DNA of 32,000 bases from Trichodesmium erythraeum IMS101. GTDB taxonomy: Bacteria > Cyanobacteriota > Cyanobacteriia > Cyanobacteriales > Microcoleaceae. The first letter of the stretch is position 1; each line of letters begins with the position of its first letter. Both the position numbers and the translations under genes were made by a program. Below, in pieces: positions 8,431 through 32,000 of this stretch. The notes beneath the pieces were generated by a model. It did not search any database and was not told the origin of the DNA. It saw only the letters and a list, made by a program, of their open reading frames with translations. Location of the stretch: contig NC_008312.1 in assembly GCF_000014265.1 (NCBI RefSeq), positions 1,590,001 to 1,622,000 of the forward strand. Reading direction: 5' to 3'.

Positions 8431-9814
8431 TTAGCGGGACTTTAGCAAATTTCAAGCCCAAACAAACCCTAAACTCTCTTTATGAGCGGTAAATACGTCG
8501 ATGTTTTCATCTAACCACTCAACAAAACGATAAGATATTGCGGTACGAAATGCTTCTAAAGTATCAGTAAACGTATTTAATGGTTTGTTAGCCCAACGCC
8601 TTCTTATACCTCCTGTTAACTGATGCCAGATAATAAATGTATAAGCACAAAATACTAAAATAAAATGCCTTTTAAGGCTGATTTTATCTCTGACTTGATA
8701 TTCTCTTAATCCTAACCATCCTTTGGCTTCCCTGTAGAAAACTTCCACCCAATTTCTTTGAGAATAAGTAGAATATATCCACTCAGGAGTTACATATTTG
8801 TCTTCTCTATTAGTGATATAATAGTTAATATCAGTGGCCTCAGAAAAACTTTTAGCATTCATAACGATAGCTATAGTTTTTTGACCTGACATCCTAGATA
8901 TTTCTACTTCTAATGTAGCTACCCAAACTTCTCTAGCATTTTTTGTACTTAGTTGAACTAAGTTGAAAGCTTTCTGAGGTATACTTTCTGCCAGCTTGTC
9001 TAATCTAATTTCCTCTTTAATGTCATCTTGTTTTTTAATGATGACTTTTCGATTTTTAGCTAATCCTCCTATATAAGTTAAACTTCTTTTCTCTAGTTGA
9101 TTTAAGAATGATGTATTGTTACCATAGCCAAATTTCAATTAACACAATTTCTGGTTGGTGTCCTCTGGACAAACATTGATCTACTAGAGACATTGCACTC
9201 GTCTGGTTTCTTGACAAATTCTGGGTCTTTTTTTCCTTTTGGAAAAGAATCAGCTTTCTGATACAAAGCTATGTCTAAAGGTAGACTTTTAACTCCATCA
9301 TAAAGATGAGTTGTCACCACGACTACACCATTATCTGTTTTTCCTATTTCTCCTATATATTGCCGCCCTACTCCTGCAGTAAAATTACCACTTTTTCTGT
9401 GGCCTGAATCGTCTATAATTAAAGCAATAGGATCGAGAAGGTTTTGTTTGGCGACGTTCCCACATTACTTGAAGACGACGCTCATTCACAGCATCTACAG
9501 ACCAATTTGCTCGAACTAGAAAATGCCGTAATTTGTGGTACGTGTGACCTACAGTGTTGTTGGCAATTTGAGACAAGTTTTTTCGATCGCTTTCTCAAGA
9601 GTAATCCTCCTATATATTCCCTAAACCCTGTTTTTTGGGCTTTTGTTTTAAAGACATTGTTAAAGCGATCGCACCATCGATGGAAACAAGAGGGCATGGC
9701 CACTGAAGTTGTTTCTTTCATCAAACTTTTCCCAGGCCAGTAATTAACGTAAAATACATATCAGGTATACATTATACCCTTTTTTTTACTATTTTTTCAC
9801 TAAAGTCCCGTTAG
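8431..9814 (-). mobile_element. IS4/IS701-like insertion sequence (about 1.38 kb) with a degenerate transposase
   Basis: Imperfect terminal inverted repeats share the core CGGGACTTTAG (8435-8445, and its reverse complement at 9800-9810). The interior encodes an IS701-type DDE transposase in three shifted frames. Confidence 0.65.
8452..9724 (-). pseudogene. IS701-like DDE transposase, frameshifted
   Basis: ORFs 9482-9724, 9385-9576, 9135-9320 and 8452-9138 are collinear pieces of one transposase. They carry the N-terminal W.DRF..VF...Q...F..YI.GLL motif and the C-terminal YSQRNWVEVFYREAKGWLGLREYQVR motif, split by at least 2 frameshifts. Confidence 0.65.
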
Positions 9815-14272: not shown

Positions 14273-15049
14273 TCAGCGTGTAGCAGTAGAAATAGTTTTT
14301 CCTAGTGACATTAAAGTTCGTTTAAAATTTTCAGCACGACTGCAGAAATCATCACCTTTTCCTAAATCAAATGCCATTCCTTTGACTCCTGATAATAACT
14401 TTAAATAAACTTGACTTTCGGCATCTTGAGTGGCAATAACTAAATAAAATTGTTCTATTCCTGTAGTTTGAATAGCTGTTACCACTTCCTCAATATTTTT
14501 AGTTTTTTTATCTGGAATATGTGGAGGAGCATCTGTTACTAAAACAATAGCTTTATTACTTTCTAAATCAAAGGGTTGAGCCAATGCCAACATGACTGCA
14601 TCTAAACTACTTTCTGGCACATCTCCCCCTCCATAAGCTTTAATTTTAGCAACTTTTTGGCGGAAAAGAATGGGATTATTTGTAAAGACTTTTCTGTCAA
14701 ATTTTAAGAGTTGATGTTCTTCATTAATGAGGCGATCGCGAAATTCTATTAAACCCACTCTAACTCAGACCCCATCTTTTTCGATAGTATCAGCAAATTC
14801 CATGATTGTTTCTTTTATCCCATAAATTTCACCTTGCATACTGCCAGTACAATCTAACACAAACATGATATCTGCTTTGCGTTTTATGTCTAAAGTTTCT
14901 GCTCTTTGCCTCAGAGTTTCAATAAATTTTTCTCGGGAATAACTTTTAACAGTTTTTGCTGCTAGTTTTGTCTCCAATTTTAGACCACACTCATTACAGA
15001 ATTTAGCAGTATCTAAATTTGAGGCTCCACATTTAGGGCAAGCTTTCAT
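14273..15049 (-). pseudogene. Zinc-ribbon + von Willebrand A (vWA) protein interrupted by one in-frame TGA
   Basis: ORFs 14765-15049 and 14273-14758 are in the same frame, separated only by TGA at 14765-14767 (...EKDGV*VRVGLIEFRDR...). The N-terminus has the CPKCG...CNECG zinc ribbon. The MIDAS motif is DCTGS in FVLDCTGSMQG, and a later VLVTDAPPH strand follows. Confidence 0.75.
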
Positions 15050-15056
15050 TGTTTTA

Positions 15057-16238
15057 TTAACTCCTATCTAAAAACACAAACCTTAAAAATACATCTCCCA
15101 CTTTAATCATATTCCCATGTTTAATTTCCACAGGATAATTATCAATCATTTTACCTTTCAACATAGTACCATTTTTACTACCTAAATCTCGGACAAAATA
15201 ATTATTTTCCTTTCTCATAAACTCCAAATGTTGTCTACTAATAGTTGTATCAGCTCCGGCAATATCTACACGACCTAAAATCAGACTACCACTATCATTA
15301 ATATTTACAAAAGTACGAGCTCCTTTGTTATTTCCAGATTCTACTATTAATAAGGGGTATTCAAAATTTAAAGCTATGGGTAACTTGGGATATTCAAGAG
15401 GAATTTCTAAATCACAAATCACGTCTTCTACTGACTGATAACGTTCTTCTGGATTAATCTTCATCATCTGGGATAATACCTGCTCTACTTCTGGGAAAAA
15501 ATCACAGTAAAAATCATTCAAATCTATCCCTATTTTTGGTGTTGGGGTTTGAGTTAAATACTTGATAAAATCTTCTAGTTTATACCAACCGGAATGACGC
15601 CAAAAATTTTCTCCCATGGCTAACTCATAAAGAATATGACCGAGAGAATAAATATCACTTTTAGCATCGGCAACTTTGGCTCCTTCTATCAAAAATTCTG
15701 GAGCCATATAGGGAGGTGTATCTATTATTTCTTTGCTCATGGTAATATTTTGATCTTTAAATTTGGCAACTCCAAAGTCGATAATTTTTGTTTGCATATC
15801 ATTGCTAATAATAATATTTGCTGGTTTTAAGTCTCTGTGAATAATGTTGCATTGATGAGCTGCAGATATACCTAATAATATTTGTTTAAATATTTGTTTT
15901 TTTTGTCGGTTATTGAGGGATTTTTTTTCTAAGAGTTTGTCTAGGCGTTTGCCGGGAAAGTATTCAAATAATATTAGATAGGTATTAGCATCCCATTCTT
16001 TTAGACCTAATAAGGGGATGATGTTTTCTGAGGGGATGTTAACTGCTGCTTCTAAACGAATTCTTTCTACTAAGGTTTCTTCTGGTTTAATTCCTTGAAT
16101 TACTTTTAAAATATAGTTTTTTTTGTGGCTATGGTCTATTGCTTTCCAAGCGGAACCAAAAGTACCTGTTCCTAGAAGTTCTAATAATTCAATTTCGCCT
16201 ATTTTATTAATATTGATAGGAATTTTTCCACCTACCAT
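15057..16238 (-). CDS. Ser/Thr protein kinase with C-terminal FHA domain
   Basis: G-loop GTGTFGSAWKA, HRDLKPANI, IDFGVAK and PPYMAPE. The C-terminal FHA signature is LILGR...ISRQHLEF...FVRDLGSKNGT. The ORF is intact at 393 aa. Confidence 0.9.
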   Translation of the reverse strand: MVGGKIPININKIGEIELLELLGTGTFGSAWKAIDHSHKKNYILKVIQGIKPEETLVERIRLEAAVNIPSENIIPLLGLKEWDANTYLILFEYFPGKRLDKLLEKKSLNNRQKKQIFKQILLGISAAHQCNIIHRDLKPANIIISNDMQTKIIDFGVAKFKDQNITMSKEIIDTPPYMAPEFLIEGAKVADAKSDIYSLGHILYELAMGENFWRHSGWYKLEDFIKYLTQTPTPKIGIDLNDFYCDFFPEVEQVLSQMMKINPEERYQSVEDVICDLEIPLEYPKLPIALNFEYPLLIVESGNNKGARTFVNINDSGSLILGRVDIAGADTTISRQHLEFMRKENNYFVRDLGSKNGTMLKGKMIDNYPVEIKHGNMIKVGDVFLRFVFLDRS

Positions 16239-16242
16239 TAAT

Positions 16243-17400
16243 TCTAAAGTTTTTGAAATTTTAGGTTATCAGTTTTTCAGTTATCAGTTTTCCAATTATC
16301 AGTTTTTTGATTTATTAGTATTAGTACCTCCAGTTAAAACTTCAGTTCAGAGTTTTTTTCAGTTATAAGTTTTTTCAGTTATCAGCTTTTTTAGTTATTA
16401 GCTATTAGTATCTCAAATTCAAGCTTCAATTATCAGCTTTTTCATTTCTTAGCTTTTTCATTTCTTAGCTTTTTCAGTTATCAGCTTTTTCAGTTATCAG
16501 CTTTTTGATTTATTAGCTATTAGTACCTCCGATCCAAGCTTTAATTATCAGTTTTTTTCAGTTCTTAGTTTTTTCAGTTATCATTTATCAGTTATCAATT
16601 ATCAGTTTTTTCAGTTATCAGCTTTTTGATTTATTAGCTATTAGTACCTCCGATCCAAGCTTTAATTATCAGTTTTTTTCAGTTATTATTTATCAGTTAT
16701 CATTTATCAGTTATCATTTATCAGTTTTTTCAGTTATCAGCTTTTTGATTTATTAGCTATTAGTACCTCCAGTTCAAGCTTCAGTTATCAACTTTTTTAG
16801 TTGTGAGCTATTAGTACCTTCAGTTCAAGCTTTAATTATCAGTTTTTTTTCAGTTATTAACTTTTTCAGTTATCAGCTTTTTCAGTTATCAGCTTTTTTA
16901 GTTGTTAGCTATTACTACCTCCATTTCAAGCTTTAATCATCAGTTTTTTTTCAGTTATCAGCTTTTTCAGTTATCAGCTTTTTGATTTATTAGTTATGAG
17001 TACCTTCAGTTAAAGCTTCAATTATCAGCTTTTTCAGTTCTTATATTTTTCAGTTCTTAGCCTTTTTAGTCATCAACTTTTTCAGTCATCAGCTTTTTTA
17101 GTTATTAGTTATTAGCACCTCCAGTTAAAGCTTCATTTATAACTCAGTTATTAACCTTTTTTTACTTATAATCTTTTTTAGTTATTAGCTATTAGTAACT
17201 TCAGTTTAAGCTTCAATCATCAGCTTTTTTTAGCTATTAAATTTTTCAATTATTGGCTTTTTTAGTTATCAGTTTTTCAAGGGTTAACTTTTTTAGTTAT
17301 TAGTGATTAGTCTTTCCACTTAAAACTTTAGTTATTAGTTACTAGGTAAGGATTCAGGTATACAAAATAGGTAAGTATTCAGTTATTAGCTTTTTTTAGT
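16243..17400. repeat. Nested tandem-repeat array B (STRR-like) between the PP2C and kinase genes
   Basis: About 10 units of roughly 90-125 bp share the core TTAGCTATTAGTACCTCC..CAAGCTT. They are padded by 16-mers (TTTTTCAGTTATCAGC) and heptamers (TTATCAG/TTATCAT). For example, 16492-16611 and 16612-16731 look nearly identical. Confidence 0.85.
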
Positions 17401-17554
17401 GAGTAGCTGGGGTATTGAAAAATTATTGATTGGTCAAATTATTAATTGAGAGAGAATTAAAATTTACTGTCAAACTACACTGCTTTAACTTTAGAAGTAA
17501 TTATTCTCTATTAATTCCTAATCACTCAGTTCTTGCCTAAAAAAATATGTTTGT

Positions 17555-18409
17555 TTACCATTTTTTTATTGATTGAATTACTGTTTCATTATCTGCACTT
17601 TTTCCAAGATGACGCCATACAATTAAAGTCTGATTATCCGTTTCCCCCCCCTTGCTGAGATTGACTAATTAATTTCTTAGAGATTTTTTTTAAATCTCCT
17701 TCTGATAGGATATCTTTTAATTCTTTTTCCTGGAAATTACTACTCACTCCATCACTACATAATAATAGTAAATCTTCTGCATAAAGCGAAACATAATGTA
17801 TGGGTAAATCTGGTGGTAAATTATCACACCCTAAATAAAATTCTAACATATTCTTTCCCTCGTGGTGAGCTGCCATTTCTGAGATAATTATTCCTCCTCG
17901 TCTTATGGCACTTGCTAATGTGTGGTTGTCGGTAATTTGTCTGATTTTTTGACCATAATTTTGATGAGAATAATGATAGATTAGGCTGTCTCCTAAGTTG
18001 GAAATAATTGCTATTGCTTCGGAGATTAAGGCAACTGCTAATGTGGCTCCAGATTTATCCCAACTATTGTTTTTTATTATTCTTTTTATATGAGCGTTTG
18101 TTTCGGCGATCGCTTCTTTTATGGCTATAGTTAATGTTTCTATAGTTGGGAGTTTTTTGCTTTTTTCTTGGTTGTTAATACTGGGTTCAAATACTAAGGT
18201 TTCAAATAGGCTGAGGCTGATCTTTTTAGGACTTCTCTACTGATTTCTTCTCCATGTTCGTAACCTCCTATTCCATCTGATATTGCTAATAATGTTAATG
18301 GGCTTTGCTTTGGGTTTGGGGTGAGTTGGCAGATGATGAAGCTGTCTTCGTTTTTCGGTCGTTTGTTAGTTTCGCTACGACTTACATATTCAATGTTTGT
18401 TGTTTTCAT
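17555..18409 (-). pseudogene. PP2C-family Ser/Thr phosphatase with two frameshifts
   Basis: Three collinear frames. (1) MKTTN...NEDSFII...LLAISDGIGGYEHGEE (18409-18194). (2) ...GATLAVALI...NLGDSLIY...ITDNHT...LLLCSDGV... (to 17634). (3) DNQTLIVWRH...KKW* (to 17555). The shifts lie near 18195-18210 and at the C8/G8 run 17644-17651. Confidence 0.8.
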
Positions 18410-19153
18410 TTTTGGCTCTTGGGATTAAAATTAGATAATTTTATAGTTTTTGCTTTTTGGTTTTAATATTTTAAATTTTACGGTTTTTCTGCCGTTGTTA
18501 AATTGGCAAATTTTTCTGAGTTGCTGAATGAGGTTTCAATGTTTTTGGCGCTTTTTTGAGATTTTGTGATATCCTATACATAGGATATAATTTTCTACGC
18601 TTATACTTTAATTCATTTTTATGGCTTTTAATTCTTATTCTGCCGTTGTCTTGGTTTGTTTTTTTCTGATTCTTCTTTGCTCAAAATGACTAATTTTTCT
18701 CTGGTGGTTTTGGCGGTTTTGACAAATTATTTTTTGTGTGATAAGAAAACGGAATTTTTTTGATTTTTAGCAGTGGTTTTATGTTGAATAAAAAGTCTAG
18801 TGCGTAGGCGATATAACCTAAATAACATGATAATACCAAAATTTTCTTCGGGATGCAACCCTGATTTTTTGGTCGGCGCCAGTTTTTTGAGCTCCAGAAA
18901 ATGAGGATAAAAATATACCCTAGTTCAATTAGTGTTGATAAGAGCAAAAGCAACTACTGCTTTTATCATTCTTCCAGGAATTGAAAAGAATCAAACAACC
19001 TTTCGGCAAACCCACTCAGCTGTCTAACTCTGGTTGATTTTCGGAAGCTTGATTAAAAACTCAGGAACTGAGTGGATTCTTCCACACTCTTGATAAATTC
19101 CCATTTACCAGTCTATTATTCTGCCGGATTCTTTTTTTCTCTGATTCTTCTTT
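18263..19153. repeat. Left arm of a 0.89-kb inverted repeat (PP2C codons 1-49 + about 410-nt leader + promoter module)
   Basis: The reverse complement of 18263-19153 matches 27165-28054, with only scattered single-base differences in the stretches I compared by eye. Confidence 0.85.
18830..18858 (-). promoter_or_regulatory. Predicted promoter of the PP2C-kinase-vWA operon (module copy)
   Basis: On the minus strand: TTGCAT (18858-18853), a 17-nt spacer, then TGgTATTAT (-10 at 18835-18830). The box ACTAGACTTTTTATTCAAC is the reverse complement of 18783-18801. The leader to the PP2C ATG (18409) is about 410 nt. Confidence 0.55.
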
Positions 19154-19154
19154 A

Positions 19155-22100
19155 GAAAATTTGAGTAGAGTTATCCATATTTATGAAATTTTTAGCAGAA
19201 GACCAACACCATAATTTAAATTTGAAGACCTCAAAAGTTTCCCATTATAATCACCTACTTATTTCTTGAAATTTTTAATTCTAGACTTGGAATTTTGAAC
19301 TTTGAATTTTTGAATTTTTGAATTTTAAATTTTGAATGTAGGATTTTTTTCCTTTTCCCTTTTCCCTCTTTCCTTTTTTCCTTAAACTTCATAAAATTTG
19401 AGTAGAGTTATCCATATTTATCAAACTTTTAGCAGAAAACCAACACCATAATTTAAATTTGAAGACCTCAAAAGTTTCCCATTGTCATCACCTACTTATT
19501 TCTTGAAATTTTTAATTCTAGACTTGGAATTTTGAACTTTGAATTTTTGAATTTTTGAATTTTAAATTTTGAATGTAGGATTTTTTTTCCTTTTCCCTTT
19601 TCCCTCTTTCCTTTTTTCCTTAAACTTCAGAAAATTTGAGTAGAGTTATCCATATTTATCAAACTTTTAGCAGAAAACCAACACCATAATTTAAATTTGA
19701 AGACCTCAAAAGTTTCCCATTATCATCACCTACTTATTTCTTGAAATTTTTAATTCTAGACTTGGAATTTTGAACTTTGAATTTTTGAATTTTTGAATTT
19801 TAAATTTTGAATGTAGGATTTTTTTCCTTTTCCCTTTTCCCTCTTTCCTTTTTTCCTTAAACTTCAGAAAATTTGAGTAGAGTTATCCATATTTATGAAA
19901 TTTTTAGCAGAAGACCAACACCATAATTTAAATTTGAAGAGCTCAAAAGTTTCCCATTATAATCACCTACTTATTTCTTGAAATTTTTAATTCTAGACTT
20001 GGAATTTTGAACTTTGAATTTTTGAATTTTTGAATTTTAAATTTTGAATGTAGGATTTTTTTCCTTTTCCCTTTTCCCTCTTTCCTTTTTTCCTTAAACT
20101 TCAGAAAATTTGAGTAGAGTTATCGATATTTATCAAACTTTTAGCAGAAAACCAACACCATAATTTAAATTTGAAGACCTCAAAAGTTTCCCATTATCAT
20201 CACCTACTTATTTCTTGAAATTTTTAATTCTAGATTTGGAATTTTGAACTTTGAATTTGGAATTTTAAATTTTGAATGTAGGATTTTTTTCCTTTTCCCT
20301 TTTCCCTCTTTCCTTTTTTCCTTAAACTTCATAAAATTTGAGTATAGTTATCCATATTTATCACACTTTTAGCAGAAAACCGACACCATAATTTGAATTT
20401 TAAGAACTCAAAAGTTTCCCATTATCATCACCTACTTATTTCTTGAAATTTTTAATTCTAGACTTGGAATTTTGAACTTTGAATTTTTGAATTTTAAATT
20501 TTTGAATTTGGAATTTTAAATTTTGAATGTTGGATTTTTTTCCTTTTCCCTTTTCCCTCTTTCCTTTTTTCCTTAAACTTCAGAAAATTTGAGTATAGTT
20601 ATCCATATTTATCACACTTTTAGCAGAAAACCGACACCATAATTTGAATTTGAAGAACTCAAAAGTTTCCCATTATCATCACCTACTTATTTCTTGAAAT
20701 TTTTAATTCTAGACTTGGAATTTTGAACTTTGAATTTTTGAATTGTAAATTTTTGAATTTGGAATTTTAAATTTTGAATGTAGGATTTTTTTCCTTTTCC
20801 CTTTTCCCTCTTTCCTTTTTTCCTTAAACTTCAGAAAATTTGAGTAGAGTTATCCATATTTATGAAATTTTTAGCAGAAAACCGAAACCATAACTTAAAT
20901 TAGAAGACCTCAAAAGTTTCCCATTATCATCACCTACTTATTTCTTGAAATTTTTAATTCTAGATTTGGAATTTTGAACTTTGAATTTGGAATTTTAAAT
21001 TTTGAATGTAGGATTTTTTTCCTTTTCCCTTTTCCCTCTTTCCTTTTTTCCTTAAACTTCAGAAAATTTGAGTAGAGTTATCCATATTTATGAAATTTTT
21101 AGCAGAAGACCAACACCATAATTTAAATTTGAAGAGCTCAAAAGTTTCCCATTATCATCACCTACTTATTTCTTGAAATTTTTAATTCTAGATTTGGAAT
21201 TTTGAACTTTGAATTTGGAATTTTAAATTTTGAATGTAGGATTTTTTTCCTTTTCCCTTTTCCCTCTTTCCTTTTTTCCTTAAACTTCAGAAAATTTGAG
21301 TAGAGTTATCCATATTTATGAAATTTTTAGCAGAAAACCGAAACCATAACTTAAATTAGAAGACCTCAAAAGTTTCCCATTATCATCACCTACTTATTTC
21401 TTGAAATTTTTAATTCTAGACTTGGAATTTTGAACTTTGAATTTTTGAATTTTTGAATTTTAAATTTTGAATGTTGGATTTTTTTCCTTTTCCCTTTTCC
21501 CTCTTTCCTTTTTTCCTTAAACTTCAGAAAATTTGAGTATAGTTATCCATATTTATCACACTTTTAGCAGAAAACCGACACCATAATTTGAATTTGAAGA
21601 ACTCAAAAGTTTCCCATTATCATCACCTACTTATTTCTTGAAATTTTTAATTCTAGACTTGGAATTTTGAACTTTGAATTTTTGAATTGTAAATTTTTGA
21701 ATTTGGAATTTTAAATTTTGAATGTAGGATTTTTTTCCTTTTCCCTTTTCCCTCTTTCCTTTTTTCCTTAAACTTCAGAAAATTTGAGTAGAGTTATCCA
21801 TATTTATGAAATTTTTAGCAGAAAACCGAAACCATAACTTAAATTAGAAGACCTCAAAAGTTTCCCATTATCATCACCTACTTATTTCTTGAAATTTTTA
21901 ATTCTAGATTTGGAATTTTGAACTTTGAATTTGGAATTTTAAATTTTGAATGTAGGATTTTTTTCCTTTTCCCTTTTCCCTCTTTCCTTTTTTCCTTAAA
22001 CTTCAGAAAATTTGAGTAGAGTTATCCATATTTATGAAATTTTTAGCAGAAGACCAACACCATAATTTAAATTTGAAGAGCTCAAAAGTTTCCCATTATC

Positions 22101-22825
22101 ATCACCTACTTATTTCTTGAAATTTTTAATTCTAGATTTGGAATTTTGAACTTTGAATTTGGAATTTTAAATTTTGAATGTAGGATTTTTTTCCTTTTCC
22201 CTTTTCCCTCTTTCCTTTTTTCCTTAAACTTCAGAAAATTTGAGTAGAGTTATCCATATTTATGAAATTTTTAGCAGAAAACCGAAACCATAACTTAAAT
22301 TAGAAGACCTCAAAAGTTTCCCATTATCATCACCTACTTATTTCTTGAAATTTTTAATTCTAGACTTGGAATTTTGAACTTTGAATTTTTGAATTTTTGA
22401 ATTTTAAATTTTGAATGTTGGATTTTTTTCCTTTTCCCTTTTCCCTCTTTCCTTTTTTCCTTAAACTTCAGAAAATTTGAGTAGAGTTATCCATATTTAT
22501 CAAACTTTTAGCAGAAAACCGAAACCATAACTTAAATTAGAAGACCTCAAAAGTTTCCCATTATCATCACCTACTTATTTCTTGAAATTTTTAATTCTAG
22601 ACTTGGAATTTTGAACTTTGAATTTTTGAATTTTTGAATTTTAAATTTTGAATGTTGGATTTTTTTCCTTTTCCCTTTTCCCTCTTTCCTTTTTTCCTTA
22701 AACTTCAGAAAATTTGAGTAGAGTTATCCATATTTATCAAACTTTTAGCAGAAAACCGAAACCATAATTTAAATTTGAAGACCTCAAAAGTTTCCCATTA
22801 TAATCACCTAATCATCACCTACTTA
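19155..22825 (+). repeat. Tandem array A: 15 full + 1 partial units of 228/237/251 bp
   Basis: The unit marker GAAAATTTGAGTAGAG recurs at 19155, 19392, 19630, 19867, 20104, 20332, 20583, 20834, 21062, 21290, 21527, 21778, 22006, 22234, 22471 and 22708. Each unit has a (T)GAATTTT microsatellite and a 34-nt pyrimidine tract. The array ends 19 nt before the target-1 ATG. Confidence 0.95.
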
Positions 22826-22843: not shown

Positions 22844-24713
22844 ATGCGTTGCCTAAACTGCTATACCGATGGTATCCCACTTGAGACAGAAATATGTTCC
22901 AACTGTGGCGCATACCTACCATCACTGACCCGAGACCTTCTCAAACCAGGAACTCAACTTCGAGCCCAGACCTATCGAATAGACTACCCCTTAGGTCGAG
23001 GAGGGTTCGGCGTTACCTATTGAGGACACCACACATTATTAGAACAAATAGTCGCCATCAAAGAATACTATCCCCAAAACTACCCCCTGCGACACCCCAC
23101 CACTGGCGGCTTCACCATTCCCACAAACCAACAGGAAATATTTCAACGGGGTTTACAAAGATTTCTCCGAGAAGGGAAAATATTAGCCCAACTAAATCAT
23201 CTTCACGTGGTGGGGGTAACTGACTTATTTAAGGAAAATGAAACAGCTTACATGGTGATGGAGCTAGTTACAGGAAAAAGTCTCAGAAAAGAATTAGACT
23301 CTCAACCCCAGAAAAAATTTCCTCCTCAAAAAGTCAAAAAAATAATTACTGACCTCGTATCAGCATTATCCGCAGTACATAAAAAAGGAATATTTCACCT
23401 GGATATAAAACCCGATAATATTTTGCTAACTCCAGAAGGGCGGTTAGTATTAATTGACTTTGGCTCAGCACAACAAACCTTTGGTACTTCCATGGCTACT
23501 TCCAGCACTCGGACTTTTACTGAAGGTTATGTAGCTCCGGAAGTTCTCGCCGGGGGAGAAGTAGGAGTAGAAAGCGATATTTTTGAAGTCGGAATGATGG
23601 TTTATGAAATGTTGAGTGGGCAGTTACCTCCTAATGCTTTGGAACGTTTATTATTAAAAGCAAAAGGAAAAAGTTGGGAACCAGAAGGTTTAGAGTCATC
23701 TTGGCAAAAGCTGATAATGTCGGCTTTGGTTTTGGAAAAGGAAGGTCGCCCTGGAAATGTTGAAAAGTGGTGGGAGATAAATTTTCAGGAAAAATCAACT
23801 GACAGGACTCAGGAGTCAAAATTGAAAATATGGGAATTTATACAGAGAAAGAAAGATGTAAATTCTCCACCCCGACAAAAATTTAGTTTTGAGGTAATAA
23901 AGGTTAATTCCCGGGGTAAAGAAATTGACCGTCGTTCCTACGAAGCAGAATTTTTCGCAGAAAATTTAGGTAGGGGAGGGGGGTAGTCTTGGAAATGGTT
24001 TATATTCCTGGGGGAAGTTTTCTCATGGGGTCGCCGGAAAATGAGGCGGAAAGATACTCAATAAACTCTGATGAAGGTCCCCAACATCAAGTAAATCTCC
24101 AGCCTTTTTATATGAGCAAATATTCTATTACTCAAGACCAGTACCAAGCATGGGAAATAATCCTTCTTACTTTAAAGGAGGAAAACGCCCAGTAGAAAAA
24201 GTGAGCTGGCACGACGCTACAAAGTTTTGTCAGAAGCTATCATCAAAAACTGGGAAAATTTACACACTACCTAGTGAGAGTCAATGGAAATATGCTTGTC
24301 GCGCCGGGACTACTGCTCCTTTTTATTTTGGAGAAACTATAACGCCTGGGTTAGTTAACTACAGTGGTAACTATCCTTACGCCAATGCTCCTAAAGGAAA
24401 ATATCGAGGAGAAACAACAGATATAGGAAGTTTTCCTCCTAATGCTTTTGGTTTATATGATATGCACGGCAATGTTTGGGAATGGTGTCTAGATACTTGC
24501 CACGATAATTATAATGGAGCACCTACTGATGGAAGTTCTTGGGAAAGTGGGGGTGATAGTAATGACAGGTTGCTCCGTGGCGGTTGCTGGATCCACAATT
24601 CTAGATTTTGCCGGAGTGCCTGGCGCAACTATCTCTATGCCGACTACCTCTCCAACGATAGGGGTTTTCGAGTCATCTCCTCTTCCCCGGTGGTTTCTGG
24701 CTTTCATTCCTAG
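22844..24713 (+). pseudogene. DGR target 1: zinc-ribbon / Ser/Thr kinase / FGE-sulfatase (C-type lectin fold) protein, disrupted
   Basis: Collinear along its full length with the intact paralog at 29340-31193. It carries an in-frame TGA at 23021-23023 (the paralog has CGA Arg in GVTYRGHH). A frameshift sits near 23965-23990 (an extra 5 nt relative to the paralog). A second frameshift sits near 24145-24152 (4 nt missing). ORF pieces 23207-23986, 23989-24195 and 24150-24713 belong to it. Confidence 0.85.
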
Positions 24714-24721
24714 TATTCTTC
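24572..24721 (+). other. DGR variable repeat VR1 (3' end of target 1, runs 8 nt past the stop)
   Basis: Gap-free alignment to TR at offset 2031. There are 15 mismatches, 12 of them at TR adenines. The 3' IMH-like part is identical to TR except at 24680 (C in VR1, G in TR). Confidence 0.85.
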
Positions 24722-24730
24722 CACTTTTTA

Positions 24731-24775
24731 CTTTTCCCCTTTCCCCCTTTTTCCTTCTTTCCTTTTTCCTCTTTT
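24731..24775 (+). repeat. 45-nt uninterrupted polypyrimidine tract just downstream of VR1
   Basis: CTTTTCCCCTTTCCCCCTTTTTCCTTCTTTCCTTTTTCCTCTTTT. Related tracts occur in every array A/A' unit and about 50 nt downstream of the target-2 stop (purine strand at 29251-29289). No such tract follows TR. Confidence 0.8.
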
Positions 24776-25166
24776 GAGTCCCGCTTTAGCCGGCCGAAAT
24801 TTTTTTTCAAATTTAGGGTTGTTATGGCTTAGGCCATAGATAAGAAAGCCAAGGTCCCAAAATTTGAAGTAGGTTGGGCCTCAGAACGAAACCCAACATT
24901 CTCCCAATGGCAATAACGGCCTTATACCAAGGACTTATCTTGATACTGAAATATGAAATACTGAAATTATTAGGGGGTAAAAGTTTTAAAAGTTGAAAGT
25001 TTTAATCCATGACTTTTGATTTTGGTAAGGGGGGGTTGACTTCTAAAAACCGTGAAAAAAAAAGATTAATTTCATGGGAAAGAAACTGAAAAACAGTTAG
25101 CTTTAGGTTTTCTATTGACTCTTTTTGCACTTCCCCGAAATAGTATAAAAATTTAATCGCTATAGA

Positions 25167-25469
25167 ATGAACGAATTATCAATTATCCAAAAAACTTACG
25201 ACTTAATCATTTGGTATGTACCAATAATTAACAGACTACCTAAAACTCACAAATTTCAAATTGGCGATCGCTTAGTCAACAACTTATATAATTTTCTAGA
25301 ACTACTAATTATTGCCAAATATGCCTCAGAAAAACTCAACATACTAGAATCTCTAAACCCCAAACTAGACATAGTTCGTTATCAAAACAGAATTATTTTA
25401 GACTTCCAAATAATCAACAATAAACGCTACGAATATATCAGCCAAATAATCACAGAAATAGGCAAATAA
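25167..25469 (+). CDS. avd: Avd-like DGR accessory protein (four-helix-bundle, 23S-rRNA-IVS protein family), probably truncated at the C-terminus by a TAA
   Basis: 100 aa, helical. N-terminal YDLIIWYVPIINRLPKTHKFQIGDRL matches the Avd/IVS-protein pattern. Directly after the stop at 25467-25469 the same frame continues as LGIWIKQQKPKNP* (to 25511), resembling the usual Avd tail ..LGGW.K. Confidence 0.7.
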   Translation: MNELSIIQKTYDLIIWYVPIINRLPKTHKFQIGDRLVNNLYNFLELLIIAKYASEKLNILESLNPKLDIVRYQNRIILDFQIINNKRYEYISQIITEIGK

Positions 25470-25521
25470 TTAGGAATTTGGATTAAACAACAAAAACCGA
25501 AAAATCCTTAAACCATCAAAC

Positions 25522-26581
25522 ATGAAAAGACAGAAAAACTTATATCCCCAAATTACATGTTTTGACAACCTCCTCCTCGCAGCAAAAAAATCCCAGAAAG
25601 GAAAAAAATATAAACAGAATTTTCTGAAATTTAACTACAACTTAGAATTCATAATTACTACAACTAAAAACAGAATTATAAACTAAAACCTATCAACCAG
25701 GAAAATATAACACCTTGAAAATTATCGAAAGAAAACCCAGAATAATTTCCGCAGCTCCCTACCGAGACCGAATCATCCATCACGCCTTATGTAATATTAT
25801 TATTCCCATCTTTGAAAAAACATTTATCTACGATACTTATGCCAATAGAATCAATTTTGGTACTCATAAAGCCCTAAGTCGCTTCACCAAATTTTCCTGT
25901 TCCAGCTGTTACGTTTTACAATGCGACATAGTTAAATATTTTCCCAGCATCGACCATCAAATTCTCAAAGAAATTATTCGTCGCCAAATCAAATGTCAAG
26001 ATACTCTCTGGTTAATTGAAAAAATTATTGATGGAAGTAACCAACAAATTCCGGTATTAACTAAATTTCCCGGAGACGACTTACTCTCTTCAATAAATAG
26101 GAGAAAAGGTTTACCCCTAGGAAATTTAACTAGCCAATTTTTCGCCAACTTATACCTCAATAATTTCGATCATTTCATCAAAGAAGAACTGAAAGTCAAA
26201 AAATATCTACGTTATGTCGATGACTTTGCTTTATTCTCAGACGACAAAAAATTTCTAGTTATTGCCAGACAAAAAATTGAAACATATCTAGCCAACCTCT
26301 GCCTCAAGATTCATCCTATTAAAAGCCAATTATTTCAAACAAAAAAAGGAGCTAACTTTGTTGGTTTCCTAGTATTGCCAAACCGCATTAGAATACGTTC
26401 AGAAAATTTAAGAGCTGCCAGAAAAAAAATTCGACAATTACACGCACATTATCGACAAGGAAACATAGAATCTAGCCACATCCAAAAATCTCTACAAAGT
26501 TGGTTTGCTCATTTAGACCATGGCAATACCTGGCGCTTGAAACAAAAAATACTAACTTTTCTCAATACTATGGGAGAATAA
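25522..26581 (+). pseudogene. DGR-type reverse transcriptase, N-terminal region disrupted
   Basis: MKRQKNLYPQITCFDNLLLAAKKSQKGKKY..NYNLE reads in frame 1. After a 1-nt frameshift near 25648-25655 the sequence continues as [46 protein letters not shown]..., with an in-frame TAA at 25679-25681. It has the DGR-RT motif [17 protein letters not shown] and RYVDDF. It is collinear with Bordetella bRT as I recall it. The longest open piece is 25715-26581. Confidence 0.85.
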
Positions 26582-26599
26582 TTACGGGACTGACAAACC

Positions 26600-26752
26600 A
26601 AAGCTCCGTGGCGGTAGCTGGAACCACAATTCTAGACATTGCCGGAGTGCCAGGGGCAACTATAAAAATGCCGACAACCTCAACAACAATAGGGGTTTTC
26701 GAGTCATCTCGTCTTCCCCGGTGGTTTCTGGCTTTCATTCCTAGTATTCTTC
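26600..26752 (+). other. DGR template repeat (TR), 19 nt downstream of the RT stop
   Basis: Homologous to VR1 and VR2. Adenine-rich, and in the target frame it reads ..GGSWNHNSRHCRSARGNYKNADNLNNNRGFRVISSSPVV. The ORF-track entry 26500-26769 is an out-of-frame reading of it. Confidence 0.85.
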
Positions 26753-26763
26753 ATTGCCTGAGT

Positions 26764-27208
26764 TGGTAAATGGGAATTTATCAAGAGTGTGGAAGAGTCC
26801 AGTCAGTTCCTGAGTTTTTAATCAAGCTTCCGAAAATCAACCAGAGTTAGACAGCTGAGTGGGTTTGCCGAAAGGTTGTCTGATTCTTTTCAATTCCTGG
26901 AAGAATGATAAAAGCAGTAGTTGCTTTTGCTCCTATCAACACTCATTGAACTAGGGTATATTTTTATCCTTTATCCTCATTCTCGGGAGCTCCAAAAAAC
27001 TGTCGCCGACCCAAAAATCAGGGTTGCATGCTGAAGAAAATTTTGGTATTATCATGTTAGTAGGTGTAGCTCGCCCATACACTAGACTTTTTATTCAACA
27101 TAAAACCACTGCTAAAAATCAAAACCGCCAAAACCACCAGAGAAAAATTAGTCATTTTCAGCAAATAAGAATCAGAGAAAAAAAGAAACCGGCAGAATAA
27201 TAGACTGG
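26764..27208 (+). repeat. Extra tandem copy of the about 440-bp promoter module, beginning 11 nt after TR
   Basis: 26764-27208 and 27209-27650 are direct repeats (TGGTAAATGGGAATTTATCAAGAGTGTGGAAGA...). They differ by substitutions and small indels. Confidence 0.8.
27024..27052 (+). promoter_or_regulatory. Module promoter, copy in the extra tandem unit
   Basis: TTGCAT (27024-27029), a 17-nt spacer, then TGgTATTAT (-10 at 27047-27052). The box ACTAGACTTTTTATTCAAC is at 27081-27099. Confidence 0.5.
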
Positions 27209-27458
27209 TAAATGGGAATTTATCAAGAGTGTGGAAGAATCCACTCAGTTCCAGAGTTTTTAATCAAGCTTCCGAAAATCAACCAGAGTTAGACAGCTGA
27301 GTGGGTTTGCCGAAAGGTTGTCTGATTCTTTTCAATTCCTGGAAGAATGATAAAAGCAGTAGTTGCTTTTGCTCTTATCAAGACTAATTGAACTAGGGTA
27401 TATTTTTATCCTCATTTTCTGGGGCTCAAAAAACTGGCGCCGACCAAAAAAATCAGGG

Positions 27459-27487
27459 TTGCATCCCGAAGAAAATTTTGGTATTAT
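27459..27487 (+). promoter_or_regulatory. Module promoter, duplicate of the PP2C operon promoter
   Basis: TTGCAT (27459-27464), a 17-nt spacer, then TGgTATTAT (-10 at 27482-27487). The box is at 27516-27534. Confidence 0.5.
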
Positions 27488-27907
27488 CATGTTAGTTAGG
27501 TGATATCGCCTACGCACTAGACTTTTTATTCAACATAAGACCACTGCTAAAAATCAAAAAAATTCCGTTTTCTTATCACACAAAAAATAATTTGTCAAAA
27601 CCGCCAAAACCACCAGAGAAAAATTAGTCATTTTGAGCAAAGAAGAATCAGAAAAAAACAAACCAAGACAACGGCAGAATAAGAATTAAGAGCCATAAAA
27701 ATGAATTAAAGTATAAGCGTAGAAAATTATATCCTATGTATAGGATATCACAAAATCTCAAAAAAGCGCCAAAAACATTGAAACCTCATTCAGCAACTCA
27801 GAAAAATTTGCCAATTTAACAACGGCAGAAAAACCGTAAAATTTAAAATATTAAAACCAAAAAGCAAAAACTATAAAATTATCTAATTTTAATCCCAAGA
27901 GCCAAAA

Positions 27908-28054
27908 ATGAAAACAACAAACATTGAATATGTAAGTCGTAGCGAAACTAACAAACGACCGAAAAACGAAGACAGCTTCATCATCTGCCAACTCACCCCA
28001 AACCCAAAGCAAAGCCCATTAACATTATTAGCAATATCAGATGGAATAGGAGGT
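27908..28054 (+). pseudogene. Truncated duplicate of PP2C codons 1-49
   Basis: Reads MKTTNIEYVSRSETNKRPKNEDSFIICQLTPNPKQSPLTLLAISDGIGG, the same as 18409-18263. Homology stops at 28054, where array A' begins. Confidence 0.85.
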
Positions 28055-29339
28055 AAGGAAAAAAATTCAAGATTCAAAATTTAAAATTCCAAATTCAAAG
28101 TTCAAAATTCCAAATCTAGAATTAAAAATTTCAAGAAATAAGTAGGTGATGATAATGGGAAACCTTTGAGTTCTTCAAATTCAAATTATGGTGTTGGTTT
28201 TCTGCCAAAAGTTTGATAAGTATGGATAACTCCACTCAAATTTTCTGAAGTTTAAGGAAAAAAGGAAAGAGGAAAAAGGGAAAAGGGAAAAGGAAAAAAA
28301 ATCCAAATTCCAAATTCAAAAATTCCAAATTTAAAATTCCAAATTCAAAGTTCAAAATTCCAAATCTAGAATTAAAAATTTCAAGAAATAAGTAGGTGAT
28401 GATAATGGGAAACCTTTGAGGTCTTCAAATTCAAATTATTGCGCCGGTCTTCTGCTAAAAGTTTGATAAGTATGGATAACTCCACTTAAATTTTCTGAAG
28501 TTTAAGGAAAAAAGGAAAGAGGGAAAAGGGAAAAGGAAAAAAAATCCTAAGTTCAAAATTTAAAATTCCAAATTCAAAGTTCAAAATTCCAAATCTAGAA
28601 TTAAAAATTTCAAGAAATAAGTAGGTGATGATAATGGGAAACCTTTGATGTCTTCAAATTCAAATTATGGTGCCGGTCTTCTGCTAAAAATTTCATAAAA
28701 AATATGGATAACTCCACTCAAATTTTCTGAAGTTTAAGGAAAAAAGGAAAGAGGGAAAAGGGAAAAGGAAAAAGGGAAAAGGAAAAAAATTCCAAATTCC
28801 AAATTCAAAAATTCCAAATTTAAAATTCCAAATTCAAAGTTCAAAATTCTAAATCTAGAATTAAAAATTTCAATAAATAAGTAGGTGATGATAATGGGAA
28901 ACCTTTGAGGTCTTCAAATTCAAATTATTGCGCCGGTCTTCTGCTAAAAGTTTGATAAGTATGGATAACTCCACTTAAATTTTCTGAAGTTTAAGGAAAA
29001 AAGGAAAGAGGGAAAAGGGAAAAGGAAAAAGGGAAAAGGAAAAAAATTCCAAATTCCAAATTCAAAAATTCCAAATTTAAAATTCCAAATTCAAAGTTCA
29101 AAATTCCAAATCTAGAATTAAAAATTTCAATAAATAAGTAGGTGATGATAATGGGAAACCTTTGAGGTCTTCAAATTCAAATTATTGCGCCGGTCTTCTG
29201 CTAAAAGTTTGATAAGTATGGATAACTCCACTCAAATTTTCTGAAGTTTAAGGAAAAAAGGAAAGACAGAAAAGGGAAAAGGAAAAAAATCCTAAATTCA
29301 AAACCTAAAATTAAAAATTAAAAATCCAAAAGAAAAACA
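28055..29339 (-). repeat. Tandem array A' (inverted copy of the array A family), about 5 units of 232-257 bp
   Basis: The marker CTCAAATTTTC (reverse complement of GAAAATTTGAG; two copies read CTTAAATTTTC) ends at 28245, 28495, 28727, 28984 and 29241. These units have diverged somewhat from array A units. The array abuts the target-2 stop codon at 29340. Confidence 0.9.
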
Positions 29340-29481
29340 CTAAGAATTAAAAGCAGAAACCACCGGGGAAGATGAGACAACCCGAAAACCCCTATAGTAG
29401 TAAAGATCATCGGCATTGTAATAGAAGCGCCAGGCACTACGACAATTTGTAGAATAGCTGTCCCAGCAACCGCCACGGAGC
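29340..29481 (-). other. Variable repeat VR2 (TR-homologous 3' end of target 2)
   Basis: Gap-free alignment to TR 26603-26744 gives 30 mismatches, 15 at TR adenines and 15 elsewhere (mostly C->T). It is TR-related but not a clean product of this TR. Confidence 0.6.
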
Positions 29482-31193
29482 ACTCTTTTACGATTACTAC
29501 CTCCAGTTTTCCAAGCACTTCCGTTAGTAGGTGCTCCATAATAATTATGGTGCCAAGCATCTAAACACCATTCCGAAACATTGCCGTGCATATCATATAA
29601 ACCAAAGGCATTAGGAAGAAAACTTCCCACATCTGTTGTTTGTTCCCGATACTCTCCAAATGGAGCATTGCCGTAAGGATAGTTACCATCGTAGTTAACT
29701 AACTCAGACGTCATAGTTTCTCCAAAATAAAAAGGAGTACTTGTCCCGGCACGACAAGCATATTCCCATTGACTTTCGCTGGGCAACCTGTAAATTTTCC
29801 CAGTTTTCGACGATAGCTTCTCACAAAACTTTGTAGCGTCGTGCCAGCTCACTCTTTCTACTGGGCGTTTTCCTCCTTTAAAGTAAGAAGGATTATCTCC
29901 CATAATAGCTTGGTACTGATCTTGAGTAATAGGATATTTGCTCATCAAGAAAGGCTTAATATTAACTTGATGTTGTGGACTTTCACTATCGAATCTTTCG
30001 TCCTCATATTCCGGTGACCCCATGAGAAAACTTCCCCCAGGAATATAAACCATTTCCAAGACCAACCCACTATCTAAATTTTCTGCCAAAAATTCTGCTT
30101 CGTAGGAACGACGGTCAATTTCTTTACCCCGGGAATTAACCTTTATTACCTCAAAACCAAATTTTTGTCGGGGCGGAGAACTTATATCTTTCTTTCTGTT
30201 TTTAAATTCCTTTGTTTTCCATCCTGACTCCTGAGTCCTTTCAGTTGATTTTTTGTGAAAATTCATTTCCCACCACTCCTCAATATTTCCAGGGCGACCT
30301 TCCTTTGCCAAAACTAAAGCCGACATTAGCAACTTTTGCCAAGACGACTCTAAGCCTTCAGGTTCCCAACTTTTTTCTTTTGATAATGAACGTTCCAGAA
30401 CATTGGGAGGTAACTGCCCACTCAACATTTCATAAACCATCATTCCTACTTCAAAAATATCACTTTCTACCCCTACCTCCCCCCTGGCGAGAACCTCCGG
30501 AGCCGCATAACTCTCAGCAAAACTCTCAGTGCTGGAAGTACCCATCGAAGTACCAAAAGTTTGTTTTGCCGAGCCAAAGTCAGTCAATACTAACCGTCCT
30601 TCTGGAGTTAGTAAAATATTATCGGGTTTTATATCCAGGTGAAATATTCCTTGTTGATGTACTGCCGATAATGCTGATACAAGGTCAGTAATTATTTCTT
30701 TGACTTTTTGAGGGGGAAATTTTTTCTCAGGTTGAGAATCTAATTCTTTTCTGAGACTTTTTCCTCTAACTAGCTCCATCACCAGGTAAGCTGTTTCATT
30801 TTCCTCAAATAAATCAATTACCCGCACCACATGAGGATGATTTAGTTGGGCTAATATTTTCCCTTCCTGGAGAAACCTTCGCAAACCCTGTTGAAATATT
30901 TCCTGTTGGTTTCTGGGAATGGTGAAACCTCCAGTGGTGGGATGTCGCAGGGCGTAATTTTGGGGATAGTATTCTTTAATAGCGACTATTTGTTTTAATA
31001 ATGTATGGTGTCCTCGATAAGTAACACCAAACCCTCCTCGACCTAAGGGGTAGTCTATTTGATAGGGCTTGTCTCCTAGTTGAGTACCTGGTGTTAGGAG
31101 GCCTCGGATTAGTGATGGTAGGTATGCGCCACAGTTATAACATATTTTTGTCTCAAGTGGAATACCGTCGGTATGGCAGTTTAAGCAACGCAT
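29340..31193 (-). CDS. DGR-type target 2: zinc-ribbon / Ser/Thr kinase / FGE-sulfatase (CLec-fold) protein, intact
   Basis: 617 aa. Zinc ribbon CLNCH...CYNCG. Kinase motifs GRGGFGVTY, HLDIKPDNILL, DFGSA and AAPE. FGE-sulfatase motifs RVSWHDATKFC, RLPSESQWEYACRAGT, GLYDMHGNVSEWC and LRGGCW. VR2 lies at the extreme C-terminus. Confidence 0.9.
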   Translation of the reverse strand: MRCLNCHTDGIPLETKICYNCGAYLPSLIRGLLTPGTQLGDKPYQIDYPLGRGGFGVTYRGHHTLLKQIVAIKEYYPQNYALRHPTTGGFTIPRNQQEIFQQGLRRFLQEGKILAQLNHPHVVRVIDLFEENETAYLVMELVRGKSLRKELDSQPEKKFPPQKVKEIITDLVSALSAVHQQGIFHLDIKPDNILLTPEGRLVLTDFGSAKQTFGTSMGTSSTESFAESYAAPEVLARGEVGVESDIFEVGMMVYEMLSGQLPPNVLERSLSKEKSWEPEGLESSWQKLLMSALVLAKEGRPGNIEEWWEMNFHKKSTERTQESGWKTKEFKNRKKDISSPPRQKFGFEVIKVNSRGKEIDRRSYEAEFLAENLDSGLVLEMVYIPGGSFLMGSPEYEDERFDSESPQHQVNIKPFLMSKYPITQDQYQAIMGDNPSYFKGGKRPVERVSWHDATKFCEKLSSKTGKIYRLPSESQWEYACRAGTSTPFYFGETMTSELVNYDGNYPYGNAPFGEYREQTTDVGSFLPNAFGLYDMHGNVSEWCLDAWHHNYYGAPTNGSAWKTGGSNRKRVLRGGCWDSYSTNCRSAWRFYYNADDLYYYRGFRVVSSSPVVSAFNS

Positions 31194-31284
31194 GATTTTA
31201 AGAGGTCAAAAATTAGATAAGAGTTTCAAAGCTTTCCGTAATTATAGTGTGGAGAATTTCCTGAAAAAGAAGGAAAAATGAGCA

Positions 31285-31313
31285 TAGCATCTTCAAAATA
31301 ACTATGATATAAT
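31285..31313 (+). promoter_or_regulatory. Array C unit 1 promoter
   Basis: TAGCAT (31285-31290), a 17-nt spacer, then TGaTATAAT (-10 at 31308-31313). Confidence 0.5.
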
Positions 31314-31530
31314 TTATGTATAGTTATAAATGTGGCACTATACTAGACTTTTTATTCAATGTAAAAAAAGCGATCGCTACAACACAACAATATATAAAAG
31401 GAAATTTAAGACATTCGAATGTTAGACAGTAAAAGATGTCAGAGAGCTTAAAAAAAAAATAACAACTAAATCATTATTACTTGCATTTTTTTTCATTCTG
31501 TGAAGCTCCAAAAAAAAGGAACAACGAGGG

Positions 31531-31559
31531 TAGCATCTTCAAAATAACTATGGTATAAT
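31531..31559 (+). promoter_or_regulatory. Array C unit 2 promoter
   Basis: TAGCAT (31531-31536), a 17-nt spacer, then TGgTATAAT (-10 at 31554-31559). Confidence 0.5.
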
Positions 31560-31779
31560 AAATAATGGGTATTCAATGCATATACTAGACTTTTTATTCA
31601 ACGTAAAAAAAGCGATCGCTACAACACAACAATATATAAAAGGAAATTTAAGACATTCGAATGTTAGACAGTAAAAGATGTCAGAGAGCTTAAAAAAAAA
31701 ATAACAACTAAATCATTATTACTTGCATTTTTTTTCATTCTGGGAAGCTCAAAAAAAAAGGAACGAGAAACAACGACGG

Positions 31780-31808
31780 TAGCATCTTCAAAATAACTAT
31801 GGTATAAT
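31780..31808 (+). promoter_or_regulatory. Array C unit 3 promoter
   Basis: TAGCAT (31780-31785), a 17-nt spacer, then TGgTATAAT (-10 at 31803-31808). Confidence 0.5.
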
Positions 31809-32000
31809 AAATAATGAGGATTAAATCCATATACTAGACTTTTTATTCAACGTAAAAAAAGCGATCGCCACAACACAACAATATATAAAAGGAAATTTAA
31901 GACATTCGAATGTTGGATAGTAAAAGATGTCAGAGAGCTAAAAAAAAAATAACAACTAAATCATTATTACTTGCATTTTTTTTTCATTCTGTGAAGCTCC

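Follow-up and report, generated by a model that had tools for sequence, protein, structure and literature searches.

The diversity-generating retroelement (DGR) of Bordetella phage BPP-1, arranged as mtd-avd-TR-brt, transfers sequence from a template repeat (TR) to a variable repeat (VR) with changes specific to adenines, combines the protein Avd with a reverse transcriptase (RT), and carries its VR at the 3' end of a target gene with a C-type-lectin (CLec) fold, where TR and VR share an identical 3' stretch. Among cyanobacteria, targets that join a Ser/Thr kinase to a C-terminal CLec domain are an established theme, e.g., in Nostoc PCC 7120, Arthrospira, and others, and degraded RTs as well as targets listed as "Kinase, CLec (Degraded)" are on record for strains such as Arthrospira O9.13F (PMC7517822). 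The current study concerns DGR1 of Trichodesmium erythraeum IMS101, which is located in the stretch of 32,000 nucleotides (nt) analyzed here and termed the window (contig NC_008312.1, positions 1,590,001 to 1,622,000 of the forward strand; unless stated otherwise, coordinates are those of the window). DGR1 is a genuine DGR that, as judged from comparative sequence analysis, has probably become a recently inactivated relic, with no present mutagenic homing from its own cassette.

Two published tables already contain this locus together with its TR and targets. PMC8867640 Table S1 lists the RT of "DGR1" at 1615715-1616581, target 1 at 1614150-1614713, and target 2 at 1619340-1621193; since the TR sequence is identical and the tabulated coordinates equal the window coordinates plus 1,590,000, the locus investigated here is IMS101 DGR1. 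In PMC7517822 Table S1, RT Tery_1035 (ABG50407.1) is entered with "RT Degraded? No," the variable protein VP1 (Tery_1033) has no annotation and is listed with CLec only, and VP2 (ABG50408.1) appears as "Kinase, CLec." The locus, TR, and accession numbers agree with ours, but the tables hold just an open reading frame (ORF) of 288 amino acids (aa) for the RT and a 187-aa CLec fragment for target 1, and they record no degradation, whereas we found RT, Avd, and target 1 truncated or broken and the TR drifted.

The genome of IMS101 contains a second element, and an equation of our locus with the DGR of Pfreundt et al. 2014 (PMC4143802) was ruled out by the coordinates and the TR sequence in PMC8867640 Table S1. 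That element is DGR2 (Tery_1728/1729), for which a 265-nt TR RNA, 12 targets, a stop at codon 39, an RT pseudogene, and no VR change on resequencing have been reported (PMC4143802). DGR1 and DGR2 share the genome, the target family (CLec/DUF323, often kinase fused), and the pseudogene state of the RT, but DGR2 is located elsewhere, at 2.63 Mb, its TR is not related to that of DGR1, and its TR RNA data do not apply to DGR1. With respect to remote targets, 17 of 18 have been assigned to TR2 of DGR2 and one to TR1 (PMC8867640 Table S2); our protein searches for remote VR-bearing paralogues in IMS101 did not recover them.

The repeat pair of DGR1 bears the signature of adenine-directed transfer. 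TR and VR1 were aligned without gaps at an offset of 2031, and their likeness drops off right beyond the two repeats. Twelve of the 15 mismatches are located at TR adenines (A>T, 8; A>C, 3; A>G, 1), 11 of them at codon positions 1 or 2, in a TR that contains 34 A among 150 nt, which corresponds to a strong enrichment (Fisher P = 8.9e-7); the other three are 26637 C>T, 26655 G>C, and 26711 G>C. An initial annotation of this DNA, made from the sequence alone, had named exactly these repeat coordinates and mismatch positions, and the explicit alignment reproduced all of them. It also bore out that VR1 comprises the final 142 nt of ORF 24150-24713 plus 8 nt of flank and that the last 60 nt or so are invariant apart from 26711: the homology resembling an initiation of mutagenic homing (IMH) site, TR 26692-26752 versus VR1 24661-24721, has 1 mismatch in 61 nt. 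Separate IMH and IMH* versions were not definable from the TR/VR1 comparison, and the sister TRs differ from their own VR1s within this 3' homology only at two bases after the stop codon. Translated in the target frame, the TR reads LRGGSWNHNSRHCRSARGNYKNADNLNNNRGFRVISSSPVVSGFHS followed by a stop and contains the segment NYKNADNLNNNRGFRV. A scan of the whole window for TR copies yielded a single further copy besides VR1, namely, VR2, whose mismatches are divided equally between adenines (16) and other bases (16), with several of the latter in the 3' homology stretch.

The likeness of TR and VR1 might also go back to a process without any retrohoming, namely, a simple segmental duplication or a gene conversion that involved the 3' end of a paralogue. 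The window contains many repeats, patchy conversion-like tracts connect the two target paralogues, and the last two derived bases of the window TR (26745 and 26747) match VR1. However, in each of the TR/VR1 pairs from four lineages, the mismatches cluster at TR adenines (P values of 1e-4 to 1e-6), adenine-focused differences were found in every comparison of orthologous VR1s, and the repeat adjoins avd and an RT of the DGR clade. We regard a simple duplication as extremely improbable; the A-specific pattern of the aligned sequences effectively refutes it.

The genes between the repeats are in agreement with this. The deposited IMS101 proteins ABG50406.1, ABG50407.1, and ABG50408.1 are identical to Avd, RT, and target 2, respectively. 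Avd reaches 110.5 bits with the NCBIfam model DivGenRetAVD (NF033474; cutoff, 80). The RT exhibits the motifs LGNLTSQ and YVDD, its 288-aa part contains the whole Pfam RVT_1 match, and cyanobacterial homologues, of which more than 100 with a length of about 352 aa were found, share 65 to 69% identity with it. In the PDB, the closest match is 8ub7, an RT chain of 328 aa (E = 6e-49), with an alignment that starts at residue 2; we take this chain to be the RT of the Bordetella phage BPP-1 DGR. The E values for a group II intron RT and a retron-type RT were 7e-14 and 1e-12, respectively, and the scores with the NCBIfam group II, retron, and Drt models were all far under their cutoffs. The element is assigned to the DGRs because the TR/VR1 mismatches are A specific, the Avd model is passed, and the RT is much closer to 8ub7 than to the RTs of group II introns and retrons. 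The order target-avd-RT-TR, with an Avd-like gene and a DGR-type RT between VR1 and TR, was thus upheld by profile and PDB searches, and the RT did not fall into a group II intron, retron, or other non-DGR clade. Such a placement, or mismatches without enrichment at TR adenines, had been named in the initial annotation as findings that would speak against a DGR; the analysis yielded neither.

The zinc-ribbon Ser/Thr kinase with a C-terminal FGE-sulfatase/CLec fold that had been proposed for the target is best seen in the intact paralogue, target 2. It starts with a CxxC...CxxC motif, followed by the kinase domain (Pfam Pkinase, 9.6e-45) and the C-terminal FGE-sulfatase domain (PF03781, 7e-52). 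Pkinase and FGE-sulfatase were also matched on fragments of target 1, the latter with 4.9e-42 on the 187-aa fragment. The CLec/FGE-sulfatase fold hosts both VRs; the host of VR1 is a pseudogene, and the host of VR2 is intact with a degenerate VR2. This architecture is the same as that of the kinase-CLec targets known from cyanobacteria (PMC7517822), a parallel that the initial annotation had rightly drawn.

The region is therefore a genuine DGR in which the kinase-CLec target 1, the carrier of VR1, is followed by avd, RT, and TR, and a second, convergent kinase-CLec paralogue contains VR2 (Table 1). It resembles the BPP-1 element in the adenine-specific transfer from TR to VR, the combination of Avd and RT, the VR at the 3' end of a CLec target, and the identical 3' stretch. 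It differs from BPP-1 in its gene order, in an intracellular-type kinase fusion rather than a phage tail fiber, in its inactivation, and in the lack of a GC-rich hairpin or cruciform after VR1, for which the sequence was searched; a convincing hairpin was found 3' of neither VR1 nor VR2. By analogy to BPP-1, the TR and its conserved 3' flank would have been transcribed, the RT-Avd complex would have copied this RNA to cDNA with misincorporation opposite template adenines, and the cDNA would have replaced the VR, guided by the identical 3' stretch, so that AAY codons on the ligand-binding face of the CLec domain would have been rewritten.

Table 1. Coordinates of DGR1 features in the window
Feature	Position	Strand	Remarks
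Target 1 (VP1, Tery_1033 in PMC7517822)	22844..24713	+	Pseudogene; zinc-ribbon Ser/Thr kinase fused to FGE-sulfatase/CLec domain
VR1	24572..24721	+	Variable repeat; 15 mismatches to TR, 12 at TR adenines
avd, 100 aa (ABG50406.1)	25167..25469	+	Matches to NCBIfam NF033474 and Pfam bAvd PF22296
DGR RT pseudogene (Tery_1035, ABG50407.1)	25522..26581	+	Annotated 288-aa ORF, 25715-26581
TR	26603..26752	+	Template repeat; identical to "DGR1" TR printed in PMC8867640 Table S1
Conserved TR 3' flank	26753..26903	+	Possible 14-bp hairpin, 26843-26887
VR2	29332..29481	-	Degenerate, frozen variable repeat; 32 mismatches to TR
Target 2 (VP2, ABG50408.1)	29340..31193	-	Intact; 617-aa zinc-ribbon Ser/Thr kinase plus FGE-sulfatase/CLec

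The cassette has been hit by mutations in three of its genes. RT lesions were located by tblastn with the intact orthologue P0004 and by DNA alignment with the contigs L099 (Trichodesmium sp. MAG_R01), L014 (logan ERR1726644), and L019 (JAAUYK010220387.1). The RT frame runs from the ATG at 25522 over codons 1 to 42 and is then shifted by an extra T at 25647/25648 (+1); nonsense codons (TAA for GAA) follow at 25652-25654 and 25679-25681, and a TTC>TTG change at 25717 gave rise to TTG 25715, the start codon of the annotated 288-aa ORF. Accordingly, no full-length RT frame exists in the window, since the frameshift and the two TAA codons split codons 1 to 64 from the 288-aa ORF. The corresponding N-terminal frame is intact in P0004, L019, and L021 and in the N-terminus of P0034/L099, and the 64 severed residues are conserved and can be aligned one by one with residues 3 to 66 of 8ub7. 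In light of these lesions, the entry of the DGR1 RT as not degraded (PMC7517822) appears to be wrong; it was probably made because the 288-aa remainder holds the whole Pfam RVT_1 match. The supposedly intact DGR RT of the model strain IMS101 would hence have to be corrected to an N-terminally severed pseudogene.

In avd, a GAA>TAA change at 25467 cuts off 14 residues, and the orthologues in L002 (MAG_R02), L099, L100, and L014 have 114 aa. The three nonsense codons in avd and RT (25467, 25652, and 25679) share one and the same change, GAA>TAA by G>T. For target 1, the initial annotation had assumed an ORF at 22844-24713, but this stretch is not an ORF. Codon 60 (23021-23023) is TGA, compared to CGA in the paralogue, and two indels shift the frame, since AGGGG is duplicated at 23972-23976 (5 bp) and TATT has been lost between 24149 and 24150 (4 bp); in tblastn with the intact paralogue, target 1 is spread over three frames with one in-frame stop. 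DNA alignment with the paralogue, L099, and L100 revealed that the indels are peculiar to the lineage of the window. The proximal "CLec-only" target of DGR1 in the published record is thus the tail of a broken kinase-CLec gene.

Frameshifts and stops in a single genome might be sequencing or assembly errors, with the cassette still intact in the organism, and the AT-rich genome with its many homopolymer runs invites this suspicion; some indel variants in other contigs and the frameshift of the L099 RT, which is located in an A-run, are possibly artifacts. The lesions of the window are of a different kind, since three of them are base substitutions (TGA, TAA, and TAA), the Avd stop is another, and the indels comprise 5 bp, 4 bp, and a T within "TT." Moreover, the RT frameshift and the first TAA are present in 10/10 aligned contigs that cover the RT and the codon 60 stop in 5/5 contigs that cover target 1, and these contigs are independent, originating from differing samples and assemblers. 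The truncated 288-aa RT was found with its exact sequence in 19 contigs from many samples, the same ORF was called by the GenBank annotators, and the 100-aa Avd has been deposited for strain GBRTRLIN201, too. Because the same lesions recur in many independent assemblies, we do not consider them sequencing errors, and an intact cassette in the organism is highly improbable.

Contig L014, equivalent to window positions 24692-26721, harbors the RT frameshift and the first TAA, yet it has GAA at 25679 and a full-length Avd of 114 aa; by its set of lesions, it is an intermediate decay allele. In contrast to these shared lesions, a seeming repair of the target 1 frameshifts in L009 to L013 (equivalent to window positions 23819-24156) was dropped as a polymorphism, since the variant blocks are base for base those of the paralogue target 2 and may reflect gene conversion between the paralogues or a chimeric short-read assembly.

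The TR has drifted as well. In the sister TRs (L099, L100/L101, and L002), positions 26637, 26655, and 26666 are A, C, and C, respectively, and the window TR has acquired the derived substitutions 26637 A>C, 26655 C>G, and 26666 C>A plus those at 26745 and 26747. The substitutions at 26637, 26655, and 26666 are missing from VR1 and from all sister TRs, and VR1 has retained the ancestral C at the non-A positions 26655 and 26666. By this comparison, the mismatch at 26637 is a true A-site change masked by a later mutation of the TR, and those at 26666 (C>A) and 26655 are TR mutations rather than A-site changes. The adenine count of VR1 against the consensus TR is still 12/15, and the lone non-A mismatch in the coding part is 26711, a mutation of VR1. 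DGR homing copies non-A bases faithfully. Since VR1 has kept the ancestral C at non-A positions, it has not been rewritten since the TR mutations occurred.

Before that, homing must have been active. Between the window and L099, VR1 is changed at 20 of its 150 nt, and 18 of these changes are at TR adenines (P = 4e-12), compared to 98.3% identity over the adjacent 422 nt; across the comparisons with orthologous VR1s, 17 to 28 positions differ, again mostly TR adenines. Because orthologous VR1s differ so strongly, and at TR adenines, mutagenic homing acted on VR1 after or around the split of close lineages, and the aligned sequences demonstrate an A-specific information transfer from TR to VR1 in the recent evolutionary past. 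Present-day diversification was not observed: VR1 is identical in six assemblies (the window and five others), without the three newest TR substitutions, and the TR is invariant in 10 independent assemblies. VR2 differs at 1 of 150 nt between the window and L099, and its peptide is constant across the cluster members listed apart from one T/R difference. Its near identity across lineages and its 16 mismatches at non-A positions, several of which affect the 3' homology, indicate that VR2 ceased to be a substrate earlier than VR1.

Ratios of nonsynonymous to synonymous substitutions (dN/dS) between the window and L099 are based on small counts; they amount to about 1.2 for the RT (9 nonsynonymous and 2 synonymous changes), about 1 for target 1, and 0.61 for the intact target 2, and Avd has 4 nonsynonymous changes and no synonymous one, likewise a small count. 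Taken together, the proposed order of events would be active homing, loss of VR2 as a substrate, nonsense mutations of RT and Avd, and finally drift of the TR. The comparison of lineages thereby offers a dated series of events exemplifying how DGRs die. The initial annotation had envisaged a hypervariable ligand-binding module wired to a signaling output; a working module of this kind is not what the locus contains, since RT, Avd, and target 1 are broken, VR1 has not been updated, and VR2 is frozen.

Several observations weigh against a complete inactivation. The 288-aa ORF retains the whole RVT_1 domain, the SQ motif, and YVDD, and its new start codon TTG, which arose by mutation, is preceded by AGGA 12 nt upstream, so that a truncated RT protein may be made and may even be active. 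The loss of 14 C-terminal residues of Avd may be tolerated, and DGR2 may serve as a source of RT in trans. Consensus assemblies hide minority VR variants, and six identical VR1s leave room for diversification at a low level; the dN/dS values suffer from the small counts mentioned above. The TR 3' flank is well conserved, and the literature records the RT as not degraded (PMC7517822 Table S1). On these grounds, DGR1 could be active now, either with the 288-aa RT from TTG 25715 and the 100-aa Avd or with an RT from elsewhere that uses the TR in trans, and it could diversify VR1 or the remote TR1-type target Tery_3426. This is improbable in our assessment. Every homologue of about 352 aa possesses the 64 residues that were lost here, and these residues can be aligned with the N-terminus of the nearest RT of solved structure. 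In VR1, the three most recent TR substitutions are missing, its sequence does not vary across six assemblies, and the gene that hosts it is itself a pseudogene; for RT and Avd, the dN/dS values are about 1 or more. Tery_3426, the sole remote target of TR1, was scored as not hypervariable (PMC8867640). The RT of DGR2 has been reported as a pseudogene (PMC4143802), and together with the broken RT of DGR1, this indicates that IMS101 probably lacks a functional DGR RT. Inactivation of DGR1 thus remains the favored interpretation, and caution is advisable for work on DGR activity in IMS101 and for reading VR variability in Trichodesmium metagenomes as current activity.

Orthologues of DGR1 in other Trichodesmium lineages are affected by lesions of their own, some of which are based on single metagenome-assembled genomes. 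In L099, the RT has lost 1 nt from an A-run near codon 272, and target 1 contains a different single frameshift. In L100/L101, the RT is terminated by a stop at codon 10, shifted in frame near codon 29, and interrupted by an insertion of about 190 bp after codon 92, and the target 1 orthologue is intact with 617 codons. The RT of L002 has a frameshift near codon 29. L019 encodes an intact RT of 348 codons on a contig without a TR downstream; at positions 1101-1293 of L019, the TR and its 3' flank are swapped for about 193 nt of unrelated sequence with a triplicated CTGAAGCACTCCAGGAAAAAGT-like motif. A scan of genome contigs with the 19-mer TCTTCCCCGGTGGTTTCTG detected eight loci, including the MAG_R02 orthologue. 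A scan of metagenome contigs with the RT mostly retrieved distant DGR RTs, and the only close ones were L019 and L021, too few for a population test.

We tentatively put forward that DGR1 may have been lost independently and repeatedly across Trichodesmium, that IMS101 may be devoid of any working DGR RT, and that the "hypervariability" of VRs observed upon mapping of metagenome reads to T. erythraeum may represent standing variation frozen at different times instead of ongoing hypermutation; this scenario, drawn from the distribution of lesions, is possible rather than likely. If it is true, Trichodesmium would represent a natural case of diversified kinase receptors that were locked in through the loss of their diversifier.

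The region downstream of the TR is conserved up to about position 26903. Identity of 26753-26903 to L099, L100, and L002 amounts to 95 to 97%, compared to about 92% for the RT gene versus L100, and its conservation makes this flank a candidate binding region for RT and Avd within the DGR RNA. The fold of the hairpin at 26843-26887 is not significantly better than that of shuffled sequence (z = -1.85), and no covariation was found. An Rfam scan of the whole window had zero family matches, and promoter and terminator scans around the TR on the plus strand found none, including no sigma-70-like site ahead of the TR.

Both targets are surrounded by tandem arrays, which account for 6 kb free of ORFs. 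The largest array, at 19150-22810, consists of 15.5 copies of a 237-nt unit with 93% matches and ends 34 nt before the ATG of target 1. Just past the 3' end of target 2, 4.9 copies of a 257-nt unit that is related to the 237-nt unit, in the opposite orientation, were found at 28063-29287, and three copies of a 249-nt unit are located just upstream of its start (31264-31999). An inverted repeat of about 450 nt (18653-19110, minus strand, and 27206-27664, plus strand) brackets the first array, target 1, avd, RT, and TR. Compared to the L099 contig, the entire cassette is in the opposite orientation to the flanks on either side, which suggests, on the basis of this alignment, an inversion by recombination between the inverted repeats.

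The cassette has a partly decayed signaling cluster as a neighbor (14279-18409, minus strand). The PP2C phosphatase gene of this cluster (17561-18409) contains a stop and is distributed over three frames; a duplicate of its first 51 codons is located at 27908-28060 on the plus strand. The zinc-ribbon/VWA gene at 14279-15049 has one internal stop, and the kinase-FHA gene at 15057-16238 is intact. Degenerate 16-nt TTTTTCAGTTATCAGC-like tandem units with periods of 83 to 195 nt occupy the interval between the kinase-FHA gene and the PP2C pseudogene (16266-17310). A 228-aa ORF at 8452-9138 (minus strand) resembles DDE transposase models only weakly, in their C-terminal part, and is, by these matches, probably an insertion sequence remnant; the genes that flank it lie nearer to each other in L099.

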